Positions 20,670-58,137 of a DNA stretch of 64,000 nt are shown in pieces. The DNA lies in NCBI GenBank assembly GCA_002415855.1, contig DIAS01000162.1:3647-67646 (forward strand), read 5' to 3'. Position 1 is the stretch's first letter. Every line of letters begins with the position of its first letter. Source of the stretch: Bacteroidales bacterium UBA5072. GTDB lineage: Bacteria; Bacteroidota; Bacteroidia; Bacteroidales; UBA10428. Under the pieces are notes generated by a model, which was not told the origin of the DNA, made no database searches, and worked only from the letters and a program-made list of their open reading frames with translations. The position numbers and the translations under genes were made by a program.

Positions 20670-20738
20670 AATACTTTTTTAATCGGTGATTTGCCGGACA
20701 TGGAGTTTATCAACTGTTTTACCGTTGATTACGGGGTG

Positions 20739-20748
20739 TTGGTCAAAT
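20739..20748 (+). promoter_or_regulatory. TTGGTCAAAT motif forming the loop of a hairpin
   Basis: The exact 10-mer is flanked by ACGGGGTG (20731-20738) and CACCCGT (20749-20755). It lies in the intergenic DNA between family member P1 and methyltransferase A. Confidence 0.3.
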
Positions 20749-20772
20749 CACCCGTAAAAATGACGGTAAATG

Positions 20773-23136: not shown

Positions 23137-23170
23137 ATTTTGACCCTGAATCCGGTACATTTGTCAAAAT
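23137..23170. promoter_or_regulatory. inverted pair ATTTTGAC / GTCAAAAT in a divergent promoter region
   Basis: The perfect 8-bp arms are at 23137-23144 and 23163-23170, with an 18-bp spacer. Each arm reads GTCAAAAT toward one of the two divergent genes (P1 and the GT4 gene). Confidence 0.35.
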
Positions 23171-23207: not shown

Positions 23208-23215
23208 TAGATTTG
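23208..23215 (+). promoter_or_regulatory. candidate -7 box (TAGATTTG) for the GT4 gene
   Basis: It matches TAnnTTTG and ends 28 nt upstream of the ATG at 23244. Confidence 0.45.
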
Positions 23216-23243: not shown

Positions 23244-24407
23244 ATGAACCTGTTGTTCCTTAGCGAAGTGACTCCTTTTCCACCCAACGGAGGTGAAAAG
23301 CTCAGGAGTTACGGACTGTTGAAATTAATGTCGGAATCGGACCTTACAGTACACGCCATTACCGGTAATTCGCCGGTAGAAAGTTCTGATATCAGTGCCT
23401 TCAGGAACATCCGGTTCTACAAGCATGAATTCTGTTATGACCATGAATACTACAAGGCTCCCAGCAGGTTTCAATGGTATATGCGTCTGTTCAGGCAGGA
23501 TGAAAAACTTGTATCCCTTATCAATAACATCCTGGGACAGAACAACATTGATGTGGCCTTTATTGACTATAATTTCTATGGTCAATATATCAGCCTGTTC
23601 CGGAAAAGGAAGATACCAGTAATTTATGGTACCCATAATGCTCAGGCTGAATTGTTAAATCAGACTCCCGTGAAGACCCTGAGGGCAAGAAGATCCAAAT
23701 TAATACAATATTTAACCAACAAACTGCACGAGACCTGGTATTTCAGGAAAGCCAATGCATTACTTGTTGTTTCGGAAAACGATAAAAGATACCACCAGGC
23801 TTTTGTAAGGAAGGAGAAAATATTTGTAATTCCCAATTTTTTAATTGAATCAGCATACGCTGAGACCTCCGCCAAAAAGGAGAATTATATCCTGATGACC
23901 GCCAACTTTTCCGCTTTTCAGAATTCGTGCGGGCTTGAATGGTTCATCCGCGAGATCTGGGACAAGGAATTGTGGGACCGTACGGAACTCCTGGTAGTGG
24001 GCACACATTCCACGGAAGCATTCAACAATATTAAAGGAAGATACAATACTACCCATATCAAAGCAGTCGGACAGGTTGTAGATCTGAAGTATTATATTTC
24101 CAGGGCGCTTGTTTCCATTGTCCCGTTGCTGCACGGAAGTGGATCAAGGCTCAAATGCCTCGAATCCATGGCTTTAAAAACGCAGTTGATCAGTACATCA
24201 AAAGGCGCTGAAGGGATTGACCACAATGATTCGATCATTATTGCTGATACACCGGAAGAATTTAAATCTGCAATCCTGAAAGCGCTCAACAGGGAAGTAG
24301 ATCTTACCGCAAAAGCCTATCAGGCTTTTATCGGAAAATATTCGCTTCCACCGAACAAGAGAATATTTTCCGATATTATACATCGGCTGACTGGTGGAGG
24401 CAAATAA
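23244..24407 (+). CDS. glycosyltransferase, GT4 (GT-B) family
   Basis: The N-terminus MNLLFLSEVTPFPPNGGEKLRSYGL and the C-terminal sequence PLLHGSGSRLKCLESMALKTQLISTSKGAEGI are typical of GT4 retaining transferases. Confidence 0.8.
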   Translation: MNLLFLSEVTPFPPNGGEKLRSYGLLKLMSESDLTVHAITGNSPVESSDISAFRNIRFYKHEFCYDHEYYKAPSRFQWYMRLFRQDEKLVSLINNILGQNNIDVAFIDYNFYGQYISLFRKRKIPVIYGTHNAQAELLNQTPVKTLRARRSKLIQYLTNKLHETWYFRKANALLVVSENDKRYHQAFVRKEKIFVIPNFLIESAYAETSAKKENYILMTANFSAFQNSCGLEWFIREIWDKELWDRTELLVVGTHSTEAFNNIKGRYNTTHIKAVGQVVDLKYYISRALVSIVPLLHGSGSRLKCLESMALKTQLISTSKGAEGIDHNDSIIIADTPEEFKSAILKALNREVDLTAKAYQAFIGKYSLPPNKRIFSDIIHRLTGGGK

Positions 24408-26854: not shown

Positions 26855-26863
26855 ACAGCCTGA

Positions 26864-26873
26864 TTAGTCAAAT
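26864..26873 (+). promoter_or_regulatory. TTAGTCAAAT motif upstream of the Wzy-like gene
   Basis: This is a one-mismatch variant of TTGGTCAAAT. The flanks tgaTTAGTCAAATaa resemble tgaTTGGTCAAATaa at 50903. The G of GTCAAA lies 45 nt upstream of the -7 box at 26912, the same spacing as at 23163/23208. Confidence 0.35.
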
Positions 26874-26911: not shown

Positions 26912-26919
26912 TAGTTTTG
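26912..26919 (+). promoter_or_regulatory. candidate -7 box (TAGTTTTG) for the Wzy/Wzx genes
   Basis: It matches TAnnTTTG and ends 76 nt upstream of the ATG at 26996. Confidence 0.4.
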
Positions 26920-26995: not shown

Positions 26996-28222
26996 ATGTT
27001 TAAGAAAGTTGTCATTCTGATAGTAATTTTATCATCAGTATCGCTCTATACACTTATAATTTTTCCTGATCGTTTCATCAATGTCTTACGGCTTGCTGTG
27101 CCTGTAGCCATGTTTTTTCTGTTTCTTGTGTACAGGGTATATGACAATTCCTACCGGTTCAAACCAAAATTCAGAATCGAAGTCGGCCTGATTTTATTCT
27201 CGGTTGTTTTAAGCATGTTCGGCGCTTACTACTTCCACAAACAGGATTTTGCTGTTACTGCAGTGGCTCAAAGGTTCATTTATTTTATCATGTTTTATCC
27301 TTTGCTTCATGTCCTTAAGCCGAAACCTGAATTCCTCATTAAACTCATTATCATTCTCGGTATCTTTTATGCAGTGTTGTACATCATTCAGATTTTGATA
27401 TACCCGACTGAACTGGTCTCTGCTAAAATATTCGTAGACAGGGAGACGCTCAGGATAAGTTTACCCGGTTCAGGATTTCTTATGCTGGCCTATCTCATTG
27501 GTTTGTCGCGCCTTATCAAAACAAATAATCTCAAATACCTTCTGCTCTGCCTGCTTTCATTGATTGTTCTTGCACTCCTGGGTACAAGGCAGGTAATCGC
27601 CCCGGCTGCGCTGGTTACAATACTAAGTGTTCTATTCAGCAAAAGAGTTAAATCAAGACCCTTGATCATTGTTTTGATCGCAATTGCCACCATACCGGTA
27701 TATTTTATTTTCCTGGATATCTTCAACGCCATGTTTGAGGTATCAAAGATGCAAGCCACCAACTATCAAGGAGATATCAGGGTAAAAGCGGCTACCTTCT
27801 TCTTGCTGGATTTCTTCCCCAATACAATGTCTTATATCATCGGGAACGGTGTTCCGAGCGCTCTTTCTCCCTATGGCATAAGAATGAATGCCTATGCTAA
27901 GTTTCTCGGGTATTATCAGTCTGATATCGGGATCATTGGAGATTATACGAAGTTTGGGATATTGATCGTCATTGCCCAGATTTCGATGTATGCCCGTGTA
28001 ATGTCCAAACGTTTGCCACTGGAACTTGACTTTATCAAAAATAATTTTCTGATCGCATTGCTGACTATCTTTTTTGGCAGCTCCTTTGGATATGCCGATT
28101 ACATTGTTATTATATGTATATCACTTTATCTGATCGACACGGCTTCCTATTTCAATCCTCCCGATACAGGTGTTCCTGCTGCCGATATGCCAAATGATGA
28201 GAAGCCGATTCTGATACAGTAA
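26996..28222 (+). CDS. polytopic membrane protein, O-antigen polymerase (Wzy) or ligase-like
   Basis: The 408-aa protein has about 10-11 hydrophobic segments, is AT-rich and sits next to a flippase-like gene in a glycan locus. I recognised no diagnostic motif, so the call rests on context and topology. Confidence 0.5.
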   Translation: MFKKVVILIVILSSVSLYTLIIFPDRFINVLRLAVPVAMFFLFLVYRVYDNSYRFKPKFRIEVGLILFSVVLSMFGAYYFHKQDFAVTAVAQRFIYFIMFYPLLHVLKPKPEFLIKLIIILGIFYAVLYIIQILIYPTELVSAKIFVDRETLRISLPGSGFLMLAYLIGLSRLIKTNNLKYLLLCLLSLIVLALLGTRQVIAPAALVTILSVLFSKRVKSRPLIIVLIAIATIPVYFIFLDIFNAMFEVSKMQATNYQGDIRVKAATFFLLDFFPNTMSYIIGNGVPSALSPYGIRMNAYAKFLGYYQSDIGIIGDYTKFGILIVIAQISMYARVMSKRLPLELDFIKNNFLIALLTIFFGSSFGYADYIVIICISLYLIDTASYFNPPDTGVPAADMPNDEKPILIQ

Positions 28223-49917: not shown

Positions 49918-50796
49918 TTACCTGAAAAGGCTTTTCAACCAGTGTTTGAAGAAACTTCCGAAATACAGTATGTTGCTGTAAAGGAAATAAAAATGAAAGA
50001 CAAAGGATGTGCAATGCCTTTTCCGGAATTTGTAGGCAACAGCAATGTTATAATTTGATTTAATGCTGGTGAGCGTTCGAAGAAACAGACGCCATTGAGC
50101 CTTATGTTCCAGACCTGAACTCGATTTGTCATTCCAGATTTTCAGATCAGGTAAGGCCATGAGGATAAATCCCTTTTCCTTTGCACGGAGAAAGAAATCA
50201 CAATCACCATAATACTGCGGGAAATTTTTTTGGTCGAACAATCCTACCTGCCTGAAGACCTCAACGGGAATCAGCGTGCCCATACCTCCAGTCCAGTCAA
50301 CCTGAACAGGATGATTGAATTCAGCCGAATCGGTCATACCATAACCGTTCATTTTAAGCTTGCCGGTCGTGGGATTGAAGAATGCCCCCATTCCAAAGAG
50401 CACATCCGGTTTTGCCAGGAAGTAAACTTTTGAGGCTATGATTGTTTTGCTGTTATATTTATCAACATTTTTTATCAGGTTGTTGAAAAAATTCTCAGCA
50501 CAAATAGTATCGTGGTTCCAGAGTAAAACATACTGATATTCCTGATCAGCAAGGGCATACCGAACACCCAGGTTTATCCCTCCGCTCCACCACAGGTTAC
50601 CGTCGCCTTTGAGGACAATAATACCGGGATAATTCAAGTTTAACCATTCAGCAGTGCCGTCATTGGAATTGTCATCGGCGACGATGATCGTGAACTTCCG
50701 GTGCTCAATTGCATTGATCTGTGCCATGATGGGAGGCAAAGAATTCTGAAGATATTTAAGTCCGTTGAAAACAGGAATAACAATGGCGATGCTCAT
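49918..50796 (-). CDS. glycosyltransferase family 2
   Basis: MSIAIVIPVFNGLKYLQNSLP...IIVADDNSNDGT...LLWNHD shows GT-A motifs. Confidence 0.85.
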   Translation of the reverse strand: MSIAIVIPVFNGLKYLQNSLPPIMAQINAIEHRKFTIIVADDNSNDGTAEWLNLNYPGIIVLKGDGNLWWSGGINLGVRYALADQEYQYVLLWNHDTICAENFFNNLIKNVDKYNSKTIIASKVYFLAKPDVLFGMGAFFNPTTGKLKMNGYGMTDSAEFNHPVQVDWTGGMGTLIPVEVFRQVGLFDQKNFPQYYGDCDFFLRAKEKGFILMALPDLKIWNDKSSSGLEHKAQWRLFLRTLTSIKSNYNIAVAYKFRKRHCTSFVFHFYFLYSNILYFGSFFKHWLKSLFR

Positions 50797-50905
50797 GTTA
50801 AAAAATTATAATTTATATAGAAGTGATGTATATCATCAGAAAAAAAATAACTTTACGCAATAATTCACGTTATAAGTTTAGTTGTTCGTCACTGATTTTA
50901 GTTGA

Positions 50906-50957
50906 TTGGTCAAATAAATTGATAAGTTGGTCAAATTAATGAAGTTATTAGTCAAAC
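50906..50957 (+). promoter_or_regulatory. three phased direct repeats TT(G/A)GTCAAA(T/C); candidate transcription-factor binding array
   Basis: TTGGTCAAAT starts at 50906 and 50927, and TTAGTCAAAC at 50948. The start-to-start spacing is exactly 21 bp (two helical turns). The array lies 40-90 bp upstream of the ATG at 50997. Confidence 0.45.
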
Positions 50958-50996
50958 CCCCTCAATCAATGAACAATAACTAAACTTATTTTTACA

Positions 50997-53966
50997 ATGG
51001 AGAAGTACATAAATATGATGCGGGCAAAGTTAAATAAAGAAAAGTTTCAACCAAGCAGTTTTTTCAACACACTCTTTCTGTTAGTTCTTGTTATTCTGAT
51101 CAATGGATTAATGCCCGTTGCGGCACAAAATAGTGAGGTAGTTGTATTTTCGGAAAACTGGAATGACAGTTATTTGTTGGAGCCCTGGAAGCCCAACAAT
51201 AGTGCAGGCTGGTTTCTTACATCACCTAAAAACCAGTTGGTTGCACAGGAGAATCGTGGTAATTCTCTGCGGGTAAATTTCGACGCAGGAGACCTGGGTT
51301 CGGCATCGGGTATGGGTAATTACCGGATATACCTTGATTCCATGTATAAGGAGCTTTATATCAGCTGGGAATACTGGCTTACAGCAGATTTCGATTTTGG
51401 GTATGCTGACGGAAATGGCGGAGGCAAATTCTTTGGTGGCGTAAGCGGCGGTAACATGTATGATATTCCGCGGACAGCAATAGATACGGCTGATGGCTGG
51501 GCGTACTTCATGATGTTCCAGAACGGCAGCTATTATACCTACCCTTATTTTTACAATGCTGAATATTGGGGCGGATATCCGGCCGGTTATAAAATTACAG
51601 CTTTAACGCGAGGTGAATGGAGAGAAATTACCGTACGGCTGAAGGTTAATGATCCGCAAGTGGCGAACGGGATTGTTGAGGTTTTCGATAACGGTAAGCT
51701 TGTATTTCAGCAGACAAATGCCCAGATGACATCTCCAACACATCCTGAATGGCTTATCGACGCACTGTATCTGAACAACTTCTTCGGAGGCACCAGCGCC
51801 TGTCCCAAAGCGCAGTATGCCATGTATGACAACCTTGTTGCCTGGTATTACCCCAAAGGAAGCAGTATGTACAGGTCAGGCGTCAGTGAATCGGGAAGAA
51901 CACTATATGCTCCCAGGGTTTCGAATTATCATCCGAAAGTGCCGAATAAATTCACGGAAACTGTTTATTCCGATGCTGCCGGAAAGATATCCAGTCATTG
52001 CGGATTTGAAATGCCTATCTATCATGGCGATGATTATGAAACTTCCACCATTGAAATCAGTAATGCATCCAGAATATCCATTAATGTTTCCGAGTTTACC
52101 TATGACAAGGGCCAAAGTTACACCGGATATAAGCAAATACTTAATATTTATCAGGGAAAAGGAAGCAACAGAACCCTGGTAAAATCTTTCATGTATGGAC
52201 AGAACACCTCTGTTCCATCGCAAATAGAAATATCAGGAAATACGGCCGAAATCGAATGGCAGGCAGGCAATGGGCAGCACAGAGGTTTTACATTGACCTA
52301 CACCTCCAATGGTACCGGCTCCGGGAAGAACTTTACGTGTGGAAAATTTACGGCCACGCAGCGGGGTGCAAATCAAACCACCACACAAACAGAACCTACG
52401 GCATACCCGCCTTATACCCCTTCAAATCTGCAGGTTACGTCGGCGACCACCACTTCGATAGGTATAAAATGGAATGACAATTCAGCCATTGAAACCGCTT
52501 ATGAAATTGAGCGCATGGGACCAGCCGATCAAAGAAAGACAACCCGGGTTGGCGCCAATATAACTACTTATAACGATACCGGGCTGGAATCCAATGCAAC
52601 TTATACATACTGGGTCAGAGCCTATAACACAACCGGCGGGTATTCGGCCTATACAGCGTCAGTTCAGGCCAAAACACAATCCCCTGCGGTGCCCCTGAAT
52701 GCACCAAGCAGCCTGACAAGTACTGGATATACCGAAAAGAGCATCACCATACAATGGAGTGACAATTCCAATAATGAAAACGGATTTATGATTACCCGAA
52801 CGCTGGGCATGAATCCGGACAGCAGTGTCAACATCATTGTTGGAGCCAATGAGACCGGTTTTACCGATGACAGTCTTGCATCCAATACAACCTATATTTA
52901 CACAGTTAAAGCTGTTAACAATAACGGAACCTCGGCTTCCAGTAACAAGAATGTGGCGGCAACGTTATCGATCATTGAAACACAACGTGTTAAGGAAGGT
53001 CTGATCGCTTATTATAATTTCGGATATGATCCTGATTATATTGTTCACGACTTATCAGGATACGGTAATCCTTTAAACCTTAAGATATTGCAGCCATCCG
53101 CAGTTGCCTGGAATGAAAATAACCGGATTGAGATTATCTCAAACACGGCTATCGTATCCGCTTCCTCTGCCAGTAAAATAACCTCAGAGATCAAAAGAAC
53201 CGGGGAAATTACCATGGAATGCTGGATAAGACCTTCAGACCCTGACTTATCAGCAAGCTCCCGGGTGATATCACTGGCTATCAATGATGCAGAGGTAGGT
53301 TTCGTGCTCGATCAGCATTACAGTGATGTGGATGATGGAAAATCATTGAGTTACAGTGTCCGGCTTCAAACAGAGTCAACCAATAAATCAGGGTTCCCCG
53401 AAATTTCCCCGTTGAACAGTATTGCCTATCTCAATATGCAGCATGTGGTATACATACGGGATACACTCGGCAATGAATCCCTTTATGTAAACGGGGAAAA
53501 GTCAGCCGAAGGATTTCGTCCCAGCAACTTCAGCACCTGGAGCAATAACTTTTACCTGAGGCTGGGTAATGAAAATGACCTTACCCACCCCTGGAAAGGA
53601 ACGTTTTATTCCATGGCCATTTATAACAAAGCCTTATCGGTTGGTGAAATCAGTAAGAATTATGCCCTTGGACCCTGTGATAACATCAAGACTGATGGCC
53701 AGGAATTTACAATCAATGTTTACCCCAATCCTATCACCGATGTTGCAAACATTGAGATTGTGCCGGTCAATTTGCAGGATTATATTCCACTTACCACCAT
53801 ACGGTTACTGGACATGTATGGTAAAGTCCATTATCAGACCACGCTGTTTAATCCGGATGACGGGTATCATACGACCATGGATTTTGGCAGGTATTCCAAG
53901 GGTATTTATTTTCTGCAAATAGTATCCGGAAATGATCAGTCAGCTACCAAGCTTATTGTTCAGTAG
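50997..53966 (+). CDS. T9SS-secreted protein: unassigned N-terminal beta-rich domains, 2 FN3 domains, a LamG domain and a CTD
   Basis: The signal/anchor is FFNTLFLLVLVILINGLMPVAAQ. The FN3 domains read PSNLQVTSATTTSIGIKWNDNS..YEIER and PSSLTSTGYTEKSITIQWSDNSNNENGFMITR. The LamG-type end is WKGTFYSMAIYNKALSVGEISKNY. The CTD is INVYPNPITDVANIEI...GIYFLQIVSGNDQSATKLIVQ. Confidence 0.8.
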   Translation: MEKYINMMRAKLNKEKFQPSSFFNTLFLLVLVILINGLMPVAAQNSEVVVFSENWNDSYLLEPWKPNNSAGWFLTSPKNQLVAQENRGNSLRVNFDAGDLGSASGMGNYRIYLDSMYKELYISWEYWLTADFDFGYADGNGGGKFFGGVSGGNMYDIPRTAIDTADGWAYFMMFQNGSYYTYPYFYNAEYWGGYPAGYKITALTRGEWREITVRLKVNDPQVANGIVEVFDNGKLVFQQTNAQMTSPTHPEWLIDALYLNNFFGGTSACPKAQYAMYDNLVAWYYPKGSSMYRSGVSESGRTLYAPRVSNYHPKVPNKFTETVYSDAAGKISSHCGFEMPIYHGDDYETSTIEISNASRISINVSEFTYDKGQSYTGYKQILNIYQGKGSNRTLVKSFMYGQNTSVPSQIEISGNTAEIEWQAGNGQHRGFTLTYTSNGTGSGKNFTCGKFTATQRGANQTTTQTEPTAYPPYTPSNLQVTSATTTSIGIKWNDNSAIETAYEIERMGPADQRKTTRVGANITTYNDTGLESNATYTYWVRAYNTTGGYSAYTASVQAKTQSPAVPLNAPSSLTSTGYTEKSITIQWSDNSNNENGFMITRTLGMNPDSSVNIIVGANETGFTDDSLASNTTYIYTVKAVNNNGTSASSNKNVAATLSIIETQRVKEGLIAYYNFGYDPDYIVHDLSGYGNPLNLKILQPSAVAWNENNRIEIISNTAIVSASSASKITSEIKRTGEITMECWIRPSDPDLSASSRVISLAINDAEVGFVLDQHYSDVDDGKSLSYSVRLQTESTNKSGFPEISPLNSIAYLNMQHVVYIRDTLGNESLYVNGEKSAEGFRPSNFSTWSNNFYLRLGNENDLTHPWKGTFYSMAIYNKALSVGEISKNYALGPCDNIKTDGQEFTINVYPNPITDVANIEIVPVNLQDYIPLTTIRLLDMYGKVHYQTTLFNPDDGYHTTMDFGRYSKGIYFLQIVSGNDQSATKLIVQ

Positions 53967-58044: not shown

Positions 58045-58126
58045 TTTTACTTACACAAGGCATGTCGTGCCGGCATAAGTACGGTTAATGCAGACCGGAT
58101 GCTTTTTCCCGGCAATACTTATCAAA

Positions 58127-58137
58127 TTGACCAACTT
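58127..58137 (-). promoter_or_regulatory. AAGTTGGTCAA motif in reverse orientation upstream of the wza-like gene
   Basis: The plus strand reads TTGACCAACTT. Its reverse complement, AAGTTGGTCAA, is an exact 11-mer match to 50924..50934. It lies 68-78 nt upstream of the ATG at 58205. Confidence 0.3.

Follow-up and report, generated by a model that had tools for sequence, protein, structure and literature searches.

The stretch of DNA analysed here, called the window throughout, is a 64,000-nt segment of the genome of Bacteroidales bacterium UBA5072 (C142:3647-67646 in the source assembly of 4.5 Mb, 195 contigs and 45% G+C; all contig:bases coordinates below refer to this genome's own assembly), and the element under study is an array of short phased direct repeats in one of its intergenic regions. 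Pfam profile scans of the window's open reading frames (ORFs) of at least 100 aa, all but one of 2167 aa, identified a locus for polysaccharide synthesis and export with sugar-nucleotide enzymes, GT1, GT2, GT4 and WecG transferases, Wza and Wzc, and many genes for cargo proteins of the type IX secretion system (T9SS) are scattered through it. The array sits in a 218-bp gap between the GT2 glycosyltransferase gene on the minus strand (49918..50796) and a divergent plus-strand gene (51015..53966) for a secreted protein with PL14-like, FN3 and LamG domains and a T9SS C-terminal sorting domain, referred to below as the lyase-like or target gene. The ORF finder had placed the start of this 989-aa gene at 50997. 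Because the in-frame ATG at 51015 precedes a signal peptide and coincides in the alignment with the gene start of the syntenic sister species G049, we corrected the likely start to 51015. The G049 ortholog (L073 1495-4467) is open for 878 aa only, and a full-length match runs through stops; it may have a frameshifted C-terminus that has lost the T9SS sorting domain or may reflect an assembly error. The locus is contained in metagenomes from soil, wetland and activated sludge. Two wetland metatranscriptome runs yielded contigs that are 100% identical to 51207-51353 and 51662-51825 inside the target gene, which is therefore expressed in situ in the wetland samples.

The array consists of four copies of aTTnGTCAAa in exact 21-bp steps at 50884, 50905, 50926 and 50947, all on the plus strand, each unit being made up of a core of roughly 9 bp, TTnGTCAAA, and a 12-bp spacer, so that all copies lie on one face of the helix, two turns apart. 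Scored with a position matrix for 11-mers, the distal copy 1 (GTTCGTCACTG, 50884..50894) reached 7.1, copy 2 (ATTGGTCAAAT, 50905..50915) 16.0, copy 3 (GTTGGTCAAAT, 50926..50936) 14.8, and the proximal copy 4 (ATTAGTCAAAC, 50947..50957) 12.8. A first-pass annotation, made from the letters of the window, had described three of these copies, namely the exact 10-mer TTGGTCAAAT at 50906 and 50927 and its variant TTAGTCAAAC at 50948, as spaced by exactly 21 bp on one helix face. This description is correct in position and spacing, and it missed copy 1, which precedes copy 2 by exactly 21 bp, as well as an inverted repeat bracketing the array and the palindrome TGATGTATATCATCA (see below). Tandem Repeats Finder did not report the array because its units are too divergent outside the core.

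With the start codon at 51015, the distance from the end of copy 4 to the target gene is 57 nt, compared with about 58-60 nt at the promoters of orphan SiaC genes described below. A TCAATC block (50962..50967, plus strand) follows the proximal repeat after 4-5 nt at the position of a -33 element, a role which it may well fulfil; in the genus, 36 promoters of SiaC genes have the equivalent CAATC. A putative, degenerate -7 box (TATTTTTA, consensus TAnnTTTG; 50987..50994, plus strand) follows the G of copy 4 after 36 nt and falls within a block, AACTAAACTtATTT, that is conserved in G049. A sigma-70 promoter scan returned weak matches only, and a sigma-70 model is not meaningful for Bacteroidota. 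At its other end, the array reaches with copy 1 into the vicinity of the presumed promoter of the GT2 gene.

Since the repeat is AT-rich and 25% of its genomic copies fall into the non-coding 9% of the genome, its copies might be chance intergenic words without function, and the counts over the whole window agree with this explanation, as neither TTNGTCAAA (6 vs. 4.5 in dinucleotide shuffles) nor the 10-mer with one mismatch (11 vs. 9.1) exceeded the shuffled sequences. The spacing of the copies contradicts it for the array. When the genome was divided by a crude ORF mask that counted 91% as coding, GTCAA pairs at 21-bp spacing were found six times in the non-coding part against about 0.8 expected. 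Pairs of matrix matches (score of at least 6) occurred 14 times at 21 bp compared with a mean of 1.2 at the other spacings from 9 to 40 bp, and eight of the 14 had not been used in building the matrix; a second peak of pair spacings in non-coding DNA appeared at 41-43 bp. The exact 10-mer TTGGTCAAAT itself is present six times in the 4.5-Mb genome, three of them in the window. In addition to this sharp peak, the motif keeps its position across diverged spacers and is found again, in about 25-35 species, ahead of the same gene families. The objection that it is only an AT-rich word, which the first-pass annotation had named as fatal to its own proposal, thus fails for the array, for which we give a chance origin practically no credence; it may still apply to the single copies at 23160 and 58127.

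Because a DNA-level search in 40 relatives matched coding flanks only, we compared the intergenic region by protein-anchored synteny. The sister species G049 shares 55-93% protein identity across the locus and has the same divergent arrangement of the GT2 and lyase-like genes. Its intergenic region contains four phased copies as well, ATTCGTCACCA, ATTCGTCAAAG (aligned with copy 2), ATTAATCAAAA (aligned with copy 3) and a degenerate ACTCGTTATTG, and copy 1 lies 132 nt before the ATG, compared with 131 nt in the window. The spacers have diverged, and the cores, the palindrome and the block AACTAAACTnATTT are retained. The copy-1 variant TTCGTCAC was found at the same position in G049, G016 and G050, and phased pairs to quartets precede the PL14-like homologs of at least eight congeners (G045, G048, G010, G013, G016, G019, G024 and G050).

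The element is not specific to the locus. In the source genome, the other phased sites lie upstream of genes and are nearly all oriented toward them. Two orphan paralogs of the SiaC/DUF1987 family (C40:12092 and C91:11806-12180; PF09345, E ~1e-26) have the last repeat 59-60 nt before their ATG, a third on C89, identified by tblastn, has one strong copy 58 nt before its ATG, and a fourth (C148:30663; PF09345, E = 2e-37) has an array 245 nt upstream. Further sites were found upstream of an operon containing a SpoIIE/PP2C phosphatase gene (C179:30526-31377; a triplet 59 nt upstream), a gene for a PAS protein (C40:33782) and a gene for a 1923-aa adhesin followed by a PorP/SprF-like gene (C115:56213; 61 nt upstream). 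The promoters of the target gene and of the SiaC genes have in common a CAATC after the proximal repeat and a TA about 34-36 nt past its G; a TA at the -7 position, 34-37 nt past the proximal G, is present in six of the 11 arrays of the source genome. The SiaC/DUF1987 family (PF09345) is expanded, the source genome having 12 paralogs and the genomes of the genus 5-16 matches each; none of 14 well-known genomes taken as controls, Bacteroides thetaiotaomicron among them, contains it. A SiaB-like ORF precedes some of the paralogs, and others stand as orphan genes behind the candidate operator. The one paper found on DUF1987 does not treat Bacteroidota.

About 19 species share one further array of the source genome, which has three copies at C179:28038-28090 and whose spacer (AAAGTTGCAyG) is conserved as well (L079-L086). 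In every case its neighbours are an amino-acid permease gene on one side and, on the other, the 3' end of a convergent gene for an AAA-ATPase of about 780 aa. The ATPase gene forms an operon with the PP2C gene, the latter having its own upstream array. An ORF for a hydrophobic peptide of 31 aa starts divergently about 50 nt from the array, which may represent an antisense or small RNA promoter.

For the genus, we took 40 regions upstream of orphan SiaC genes, fetched from about 25 species, and aligned them with three from the source genome. In 36 of these 43 regions, a proximal repeat of the type ATTCGTCATAA was present at a fixed place; a GTCAA precedes it by 21 bp, and the blocks CAATC and TA follow it, the TA being located at about 34 nt in the consensus read off the alignment; a strict threshold for pairs was passed by 13 of the 40 fetched regions. 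Searching 35 genomes of the genus with a strict pattern gave a median of three arrays per genome, compared with one in the reversed control. According to Pfam, the genes following the arrays in the genus encode SiaC, the adhesin, PP2C, PL14-like proteins, right-handed beta-helix proteins, secreted proteins with cadherin domains, a sugar transferase and DUF6913. Judged by these families, the genus regulon is a coherent surface and matrix programme. The repeats are almost always in sense orientation to the downstream gene at a distance from the ATG that varies from 11 to 256 nt, as might also be seen if they acted in RNA, as binding sites for a protein or a small RNA in the 5' leader. We regard this as very unlikely, because a spacing of exactly 21 bp, repeated over dozens of loci and species that are unrelated, is the mark of DNA helical phase. 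Moreover, an Rfam scan identified no family (the sole match, with E = 0.74, was due to chance), no notable fold was found, and some of the arrays are located past the 3' ends of genes. These results support the view that the phased repeats constitute a conserved cis-element next to the promoter which would bind protein on one face of the helix.

Two further structures accompany the array. The imperfect palindrome TGATGTATATCATCA (50824..50838) occupies part of the DNA between the array and the start of the GT2 gene. G049 retains it, and at PL14-like genes of G016, G013, G050 and G043 it is found again immediately upstream of the arrays. It is probably a second, separate operator for another, dimeric factor. 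The second structure is an imperfect inverted repeat with arms of 26 nt (50872-50897 and 50964-50989), which are 85% complementary and flank the array; the DNA fold has a z-score of -2.3. These arms might be taken for an invertible or cruciform element in which the repeats are incidental. This is highly improbable and was rejected, because the arms enclose no more than 66 bp, G049 has kept the repeats and not the inverted repeat, the contigs from two metagenome runs containing the locus show a single orientation, and the Pfam scans of the window ORFs of at least 100 aa (all but the one of 2167 aa) revealed no recombinase. The genome contains no second copy of the inverted repeat, which consists partly of a mirrored degenerate repeat copy and is probably the incidental part. 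A short-word BLAST of the intergenic region, an inverted-repeat arm and the triplet against the source genome yielded no further copies, and a family of miniature inverted-repeat transposable elements or repetitive extragenic palindromes was rejected for this reason.

The window contains four single copies besides the array, which had been taken as signs of a motif recurring across the locus. Their positions were correct, and all of them lie outside ORFs, except that the first base of the one at 23160 touches a start codon. The copy at 26863..26873 on the plus strand (ATTAGTCAAAT, containing the variant TTAGTCAAAT at 26864) has its G exactly 45 nt before the -7 box TAGTTTTG (26912-26919), as had been noted, and lies upstream of the gene 26996-28222. 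The site has an identical 45-nt offset to TAGTTTTG in G049, where it has a phased partner and the spacer has diverged to about 29% identity; more remote homologs of gene 26996 have promoters that do not contain it. The copy at 23159..23169 on the plus strand (ATTTGTCAAAA, with TTTGTCAAAA at 23160) shows the same exact offset to TAGATTTG (23208-23215) upstream of a GT1 gene (23244-24407); its position is not conserved in G049, and its status is uncertain. The copy at 20738..20748 on the plus strand (GTTGGTCAAAT, with the exact 10-mer at 20739) lies between two minus-strand genes as the loop of a hairpin at 20732-20759 (ACGGGGTG...CACCCGT) and faces the 3' end of a convergent gene with no gene start ahead; G049 retains the 16-mer TGGTCAAATCACCCGT of this region and has a direct repeat in place of the hairpin. 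The fourth copy, on the minus strand upstream of wza (GTTGGTCAATT, 58125..58135), overlaps the reverse complement of AAGTTGGTCAA at 58127-58137; it is not conserved in G049 and is probably due to chance. Neither this copy nor the one at 23160 should be over-interpreted.

Conservation in the sister species thus holds for the array and the copies at 26864 and 20739, only the array is beyond doubt, and recurrence across the locus overstates what is present. The locus may hold one or two extra sites, since the four strong singles in its 4.7 kb of non-coding DNA compare with 0.46 expected (P ~1e-3 in a post hoc test with a matrix derived in part from the locus) and a distance of 45 nt between motif and box occurs seven times genome-wide against about 1.3 expected, two of the seven being the sites described in the first-pass annotation. 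The geometry of the array, with 34-37 nt to the position of the -7 box, differs from the 45 nt of the single sites. What the element marks is a genome-wide and genus-wide regulon.

No transcription factor gene was detected in the Pfam scans of the window ORFs, in line with the earlier statement that the window lacks an obvious regulator gene, and the factor would therefore have to act in trans. The layout of the array resembles that published for operators of LytTR-type response regulators, which consist of 9-bp direct repeats with 12-bp spacers (11-13) located 4-11 bp upstream of the -35 element (PMC6193735). Two of these features are present in the array, namely four imperfect direct repeats of about 9 bp and a period of 21 bp within the expected 20-22 bp. 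The distance of 4-5 nt from the proximal repeat to the TCAATC would be consistent with the third if this block serves as the -33 element; the arrays of some congeners end 11-25 nt before the ATG. The source genome encodes 15 LytTR proteins.

A link to this family was found outside the genus. Among 20 loci (186 kb) from other families of the order which carry the same phased repeat, four contain a gene with Response_reg and LytTR domains within at most 3.6 kb, compared with about 0.6 expected. These four loci come from four other Bacteroidales families; three of the LytTR genes lie within at most 1.2 kb of the array, and the fourth is the last gene of an operon starting at the array. The regulator gene is divergent from the array in G075. 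In G055 (L177, G055:C1), a sensor kinase with Y_Y_Y and Reg_prop domains and a LytTR regulator are followed by a phased GTTCGTCAA pair and a 1048-aa T9SS-cargo gene, an order that looks like a compact, locally wired form of the same control. In G093, an efflux operon has as its divergent neighbour an operon of a LytS-type kinase and a LytTR regulator, and in G121 the array lies upstream of an operon ending in a kinase and a LytTR regulator. In the latter two (L178, L180), a perfect TAnnTTTG box is located 34-35 nt past the proximal repeat, the same geometry as in the window. For three of the four linked regulators, the most similar proteins of the source genome are the same four paralogs, with 35-44% identity. 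The candidate response regulator genes are therefore C182:3025-3741, C143:106932-107636, C81:24743-25453 and C145:17626-18393, two or three of which adjoin a kinase-sized ORF. A gene for a membrane LytTR protein lies beside a FabK-like gene 4 kb from the SiaC site on C91; it is not favoured as a candidate. From the layout and these linked loci, we consider it fairly probable that the array is the operator of a genus-wide regulon and that its factor is a LytTR-family response regulator activating weak promoters.

Several observations weigh against this assignment. The repeat matches the LytTR consensus [TA][AC][CA]GTTN[AG][TG] at only about six of nine positions by eye, this consensus being a loose one; the operon repeats in PMC6193735 diverge from it as well. 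No arrays are present near the 15 LytTR genes or the four best candidates of the source genome, where only weak singles or pairs were detected at C81 and C143, and the 370 kb of loci from the genus do not contain a LytTR gene. Unlike in classical LytTR systems, an autoregulatory array was not found. Outside the genus, the order-wide count of the strict pattern is not clearly above the reversed control; for the genus, repeats in a few genomes inflate the totals of the control. Part of the seed for the position matrix came from this locus, and the RNA contigs of the locus are two short fragments of coding sequence only. Two conserved array families aim into the 3' ends of convergent genes. Finally, the arrays of four congeners (G016, G013, G050 and G022) end 11-25 nt before the ATG of a gene for a secreted protein, which is not expected for a simple upstream activator and permits repression.

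The missing adjacency of LytTR genes and arrays within the genus would also fit a real operator for a factor of another kind, such as an AraC/XylS-type protein (including the hybrid two-component form), a winged-helix protein of the OmpR/PhoB type or a member of an undescribed family. AraC at araI1-araI2 and XylS at Pm indeed use direct repeats with a centre-to-centre distance of 21 bp, the proximal one overlapping the -35 element, the GTCAT(A)A core shows similarity to CTGTCAT, the half-site of the pho box, and a degenerate TCAAT lies 9-10 bp past the proximal copy. In the information-content profile, each 21-bp unit appears as a single contiguous block of 9-10 bp instead of two AraC-type boxes, and the half-sites every 10-11 bp that are typical of winged-helix proteins are not seen, as the distal units have none at +10/11. 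Because, in addition, the same repeat adjoins LytTR regulators in four other families, we consider a factor from outside the LytTR family unlikely and retain a LytTR response regulator as the preferred candidate.

The short distances to the start codon concern the sign of regulation. In arrays ending 11-25 nt before the start, as observed at L138, L156, L162, L148, L149 and L151 before PL14-like, beta-helix and cadherin genes, the last copy must overlap the core promoter or the leader. At the conserved array C179:28038, a T-rich box resembling a -7 element directly abuts the last repeat. Both arrangements would suit a repressor acting as a roadblock, or a dual regulator, whose occupancy shuts off the lyase-like gene, the divergent GT2 gene or both. 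In the window, G049, the SiaC promoters and the LytTR-linked loci, the proximal copy is instead located 34-37 nt upstream of the -7 position, the usual place of an activator, and these promoters have no good -33/-7 consensus, as is typical of activator dependence. We therefore favour activation, and repression appears rather unlikely to us. Placement as an upstream activator, which had been proposed from the 45-nt offsets of two single sites, is plausible and stays a proposal in view of the congeners with short distances.

In the mechanism we propose, the repeats at 50884-50957 would be head-to-tail sites for one transcription factor, encoded outside the window. The array would abut the core promoter of the gene for the PL14/FN3/LamG T9SS cargo and also lie near the divergent GT2 promoter. 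A LytTR response regulator would bind cooperatively and activate promoters that do not have good -33/-7 elements. Its predicted regulon would comprise orphan SiaC/DUF1987 phospho-switch proteins, the PP2C operon, the PAS protein, the adhesin with its PorP/SprF partner and the lyase-like T9SS cargo, and the genus would add PL14-like, beta-helix and cadherin-type secreted proteins and a sugar transferase, amounting to an extracellular-matrix and surface programme. A broader version is more tentative and in our view doubtful: one trans-acting regulator, either of the LytTR type without local autoregulated wiring or of another family, might coordinate the matrix programme of the genus by coupling SiaC and PP2C to lyase-like T9SS cargo, adhesin and exopolysaccharide genes, as a counterpart of the Sia and AlgR biofilm systems of Pseudomonas without a cyclic-di-GMP output, and might also fire convergent antisense promoters such as the one at C179:28038.

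For the regulation of polysaccharide coats, T9SS surface proteins and the expanded SiaC family in non-Bacteroides Bacteroidales of soils and wetlands, the candidate operator provides a sequence handle by which the regulon may be read directly from genomes, and it would tie SiaC-type switches to matrix enzymes and adhesins. The regulator has been narrowed to four LytTR paralogs as candidates, which can be tested without cultivation.

Among known systems, the operators of LytTR regulators (AgrA at agr P2/P3, ComE, PlnC and HdrR/BrsR; Zou et al. 2018, PMC6193735) share with the array the imperfect 9-bp direct repeats and the 12-bp gaps, and their place a few bp upstream of the -35 element of weak, activator-dependent promoters resembles the predicted setting of the array. 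They differ in having two copies instead of four and a core of ACCnCTTA or ACAGTTAAG instead of TTnGTCAAA. The promoters described here are of the Bacteroidota -33/-7 type, the predicted regulator is not adjacent, no autoregulation was seen in the genus, and the regulon is dispersed and large. AlgR of Pseudomonas aeruginosa, a LytTR response regulator which controls exopolysaccharide and surface functions, binds CCGTTCGTC at algD and other promoters; this 9-mer has a TTCGTC core, as have most copies of the present regulon (ATTCGTCAA). AlgR sites are mostly single 9-mers located far upstream in either orientation, not 21-bp arrays, and the organisms and promoters are unrelated. The half-sites of AraC and XylS extend over 15-17 bp with two separated recognition boxes per monomer, whereas each unit of the array has one contiguous block. 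The SiaABCD system of P. aeruginosa (PMC8457831) shares the SiaC family (PF09345), a SiaA-like PP2C phosphatase and the connection to matrix and adhesion genes. Transcriptional control by a phased operator has not been described for Sia, and we saw no partner corresponding to the diguanylate cyclase SiaD; the SiaC family is expanded here, with several orphan paralogs that have a candidate operator of their own. Such a switch is of an ordinary kind, and the novelty lies in the regulon.

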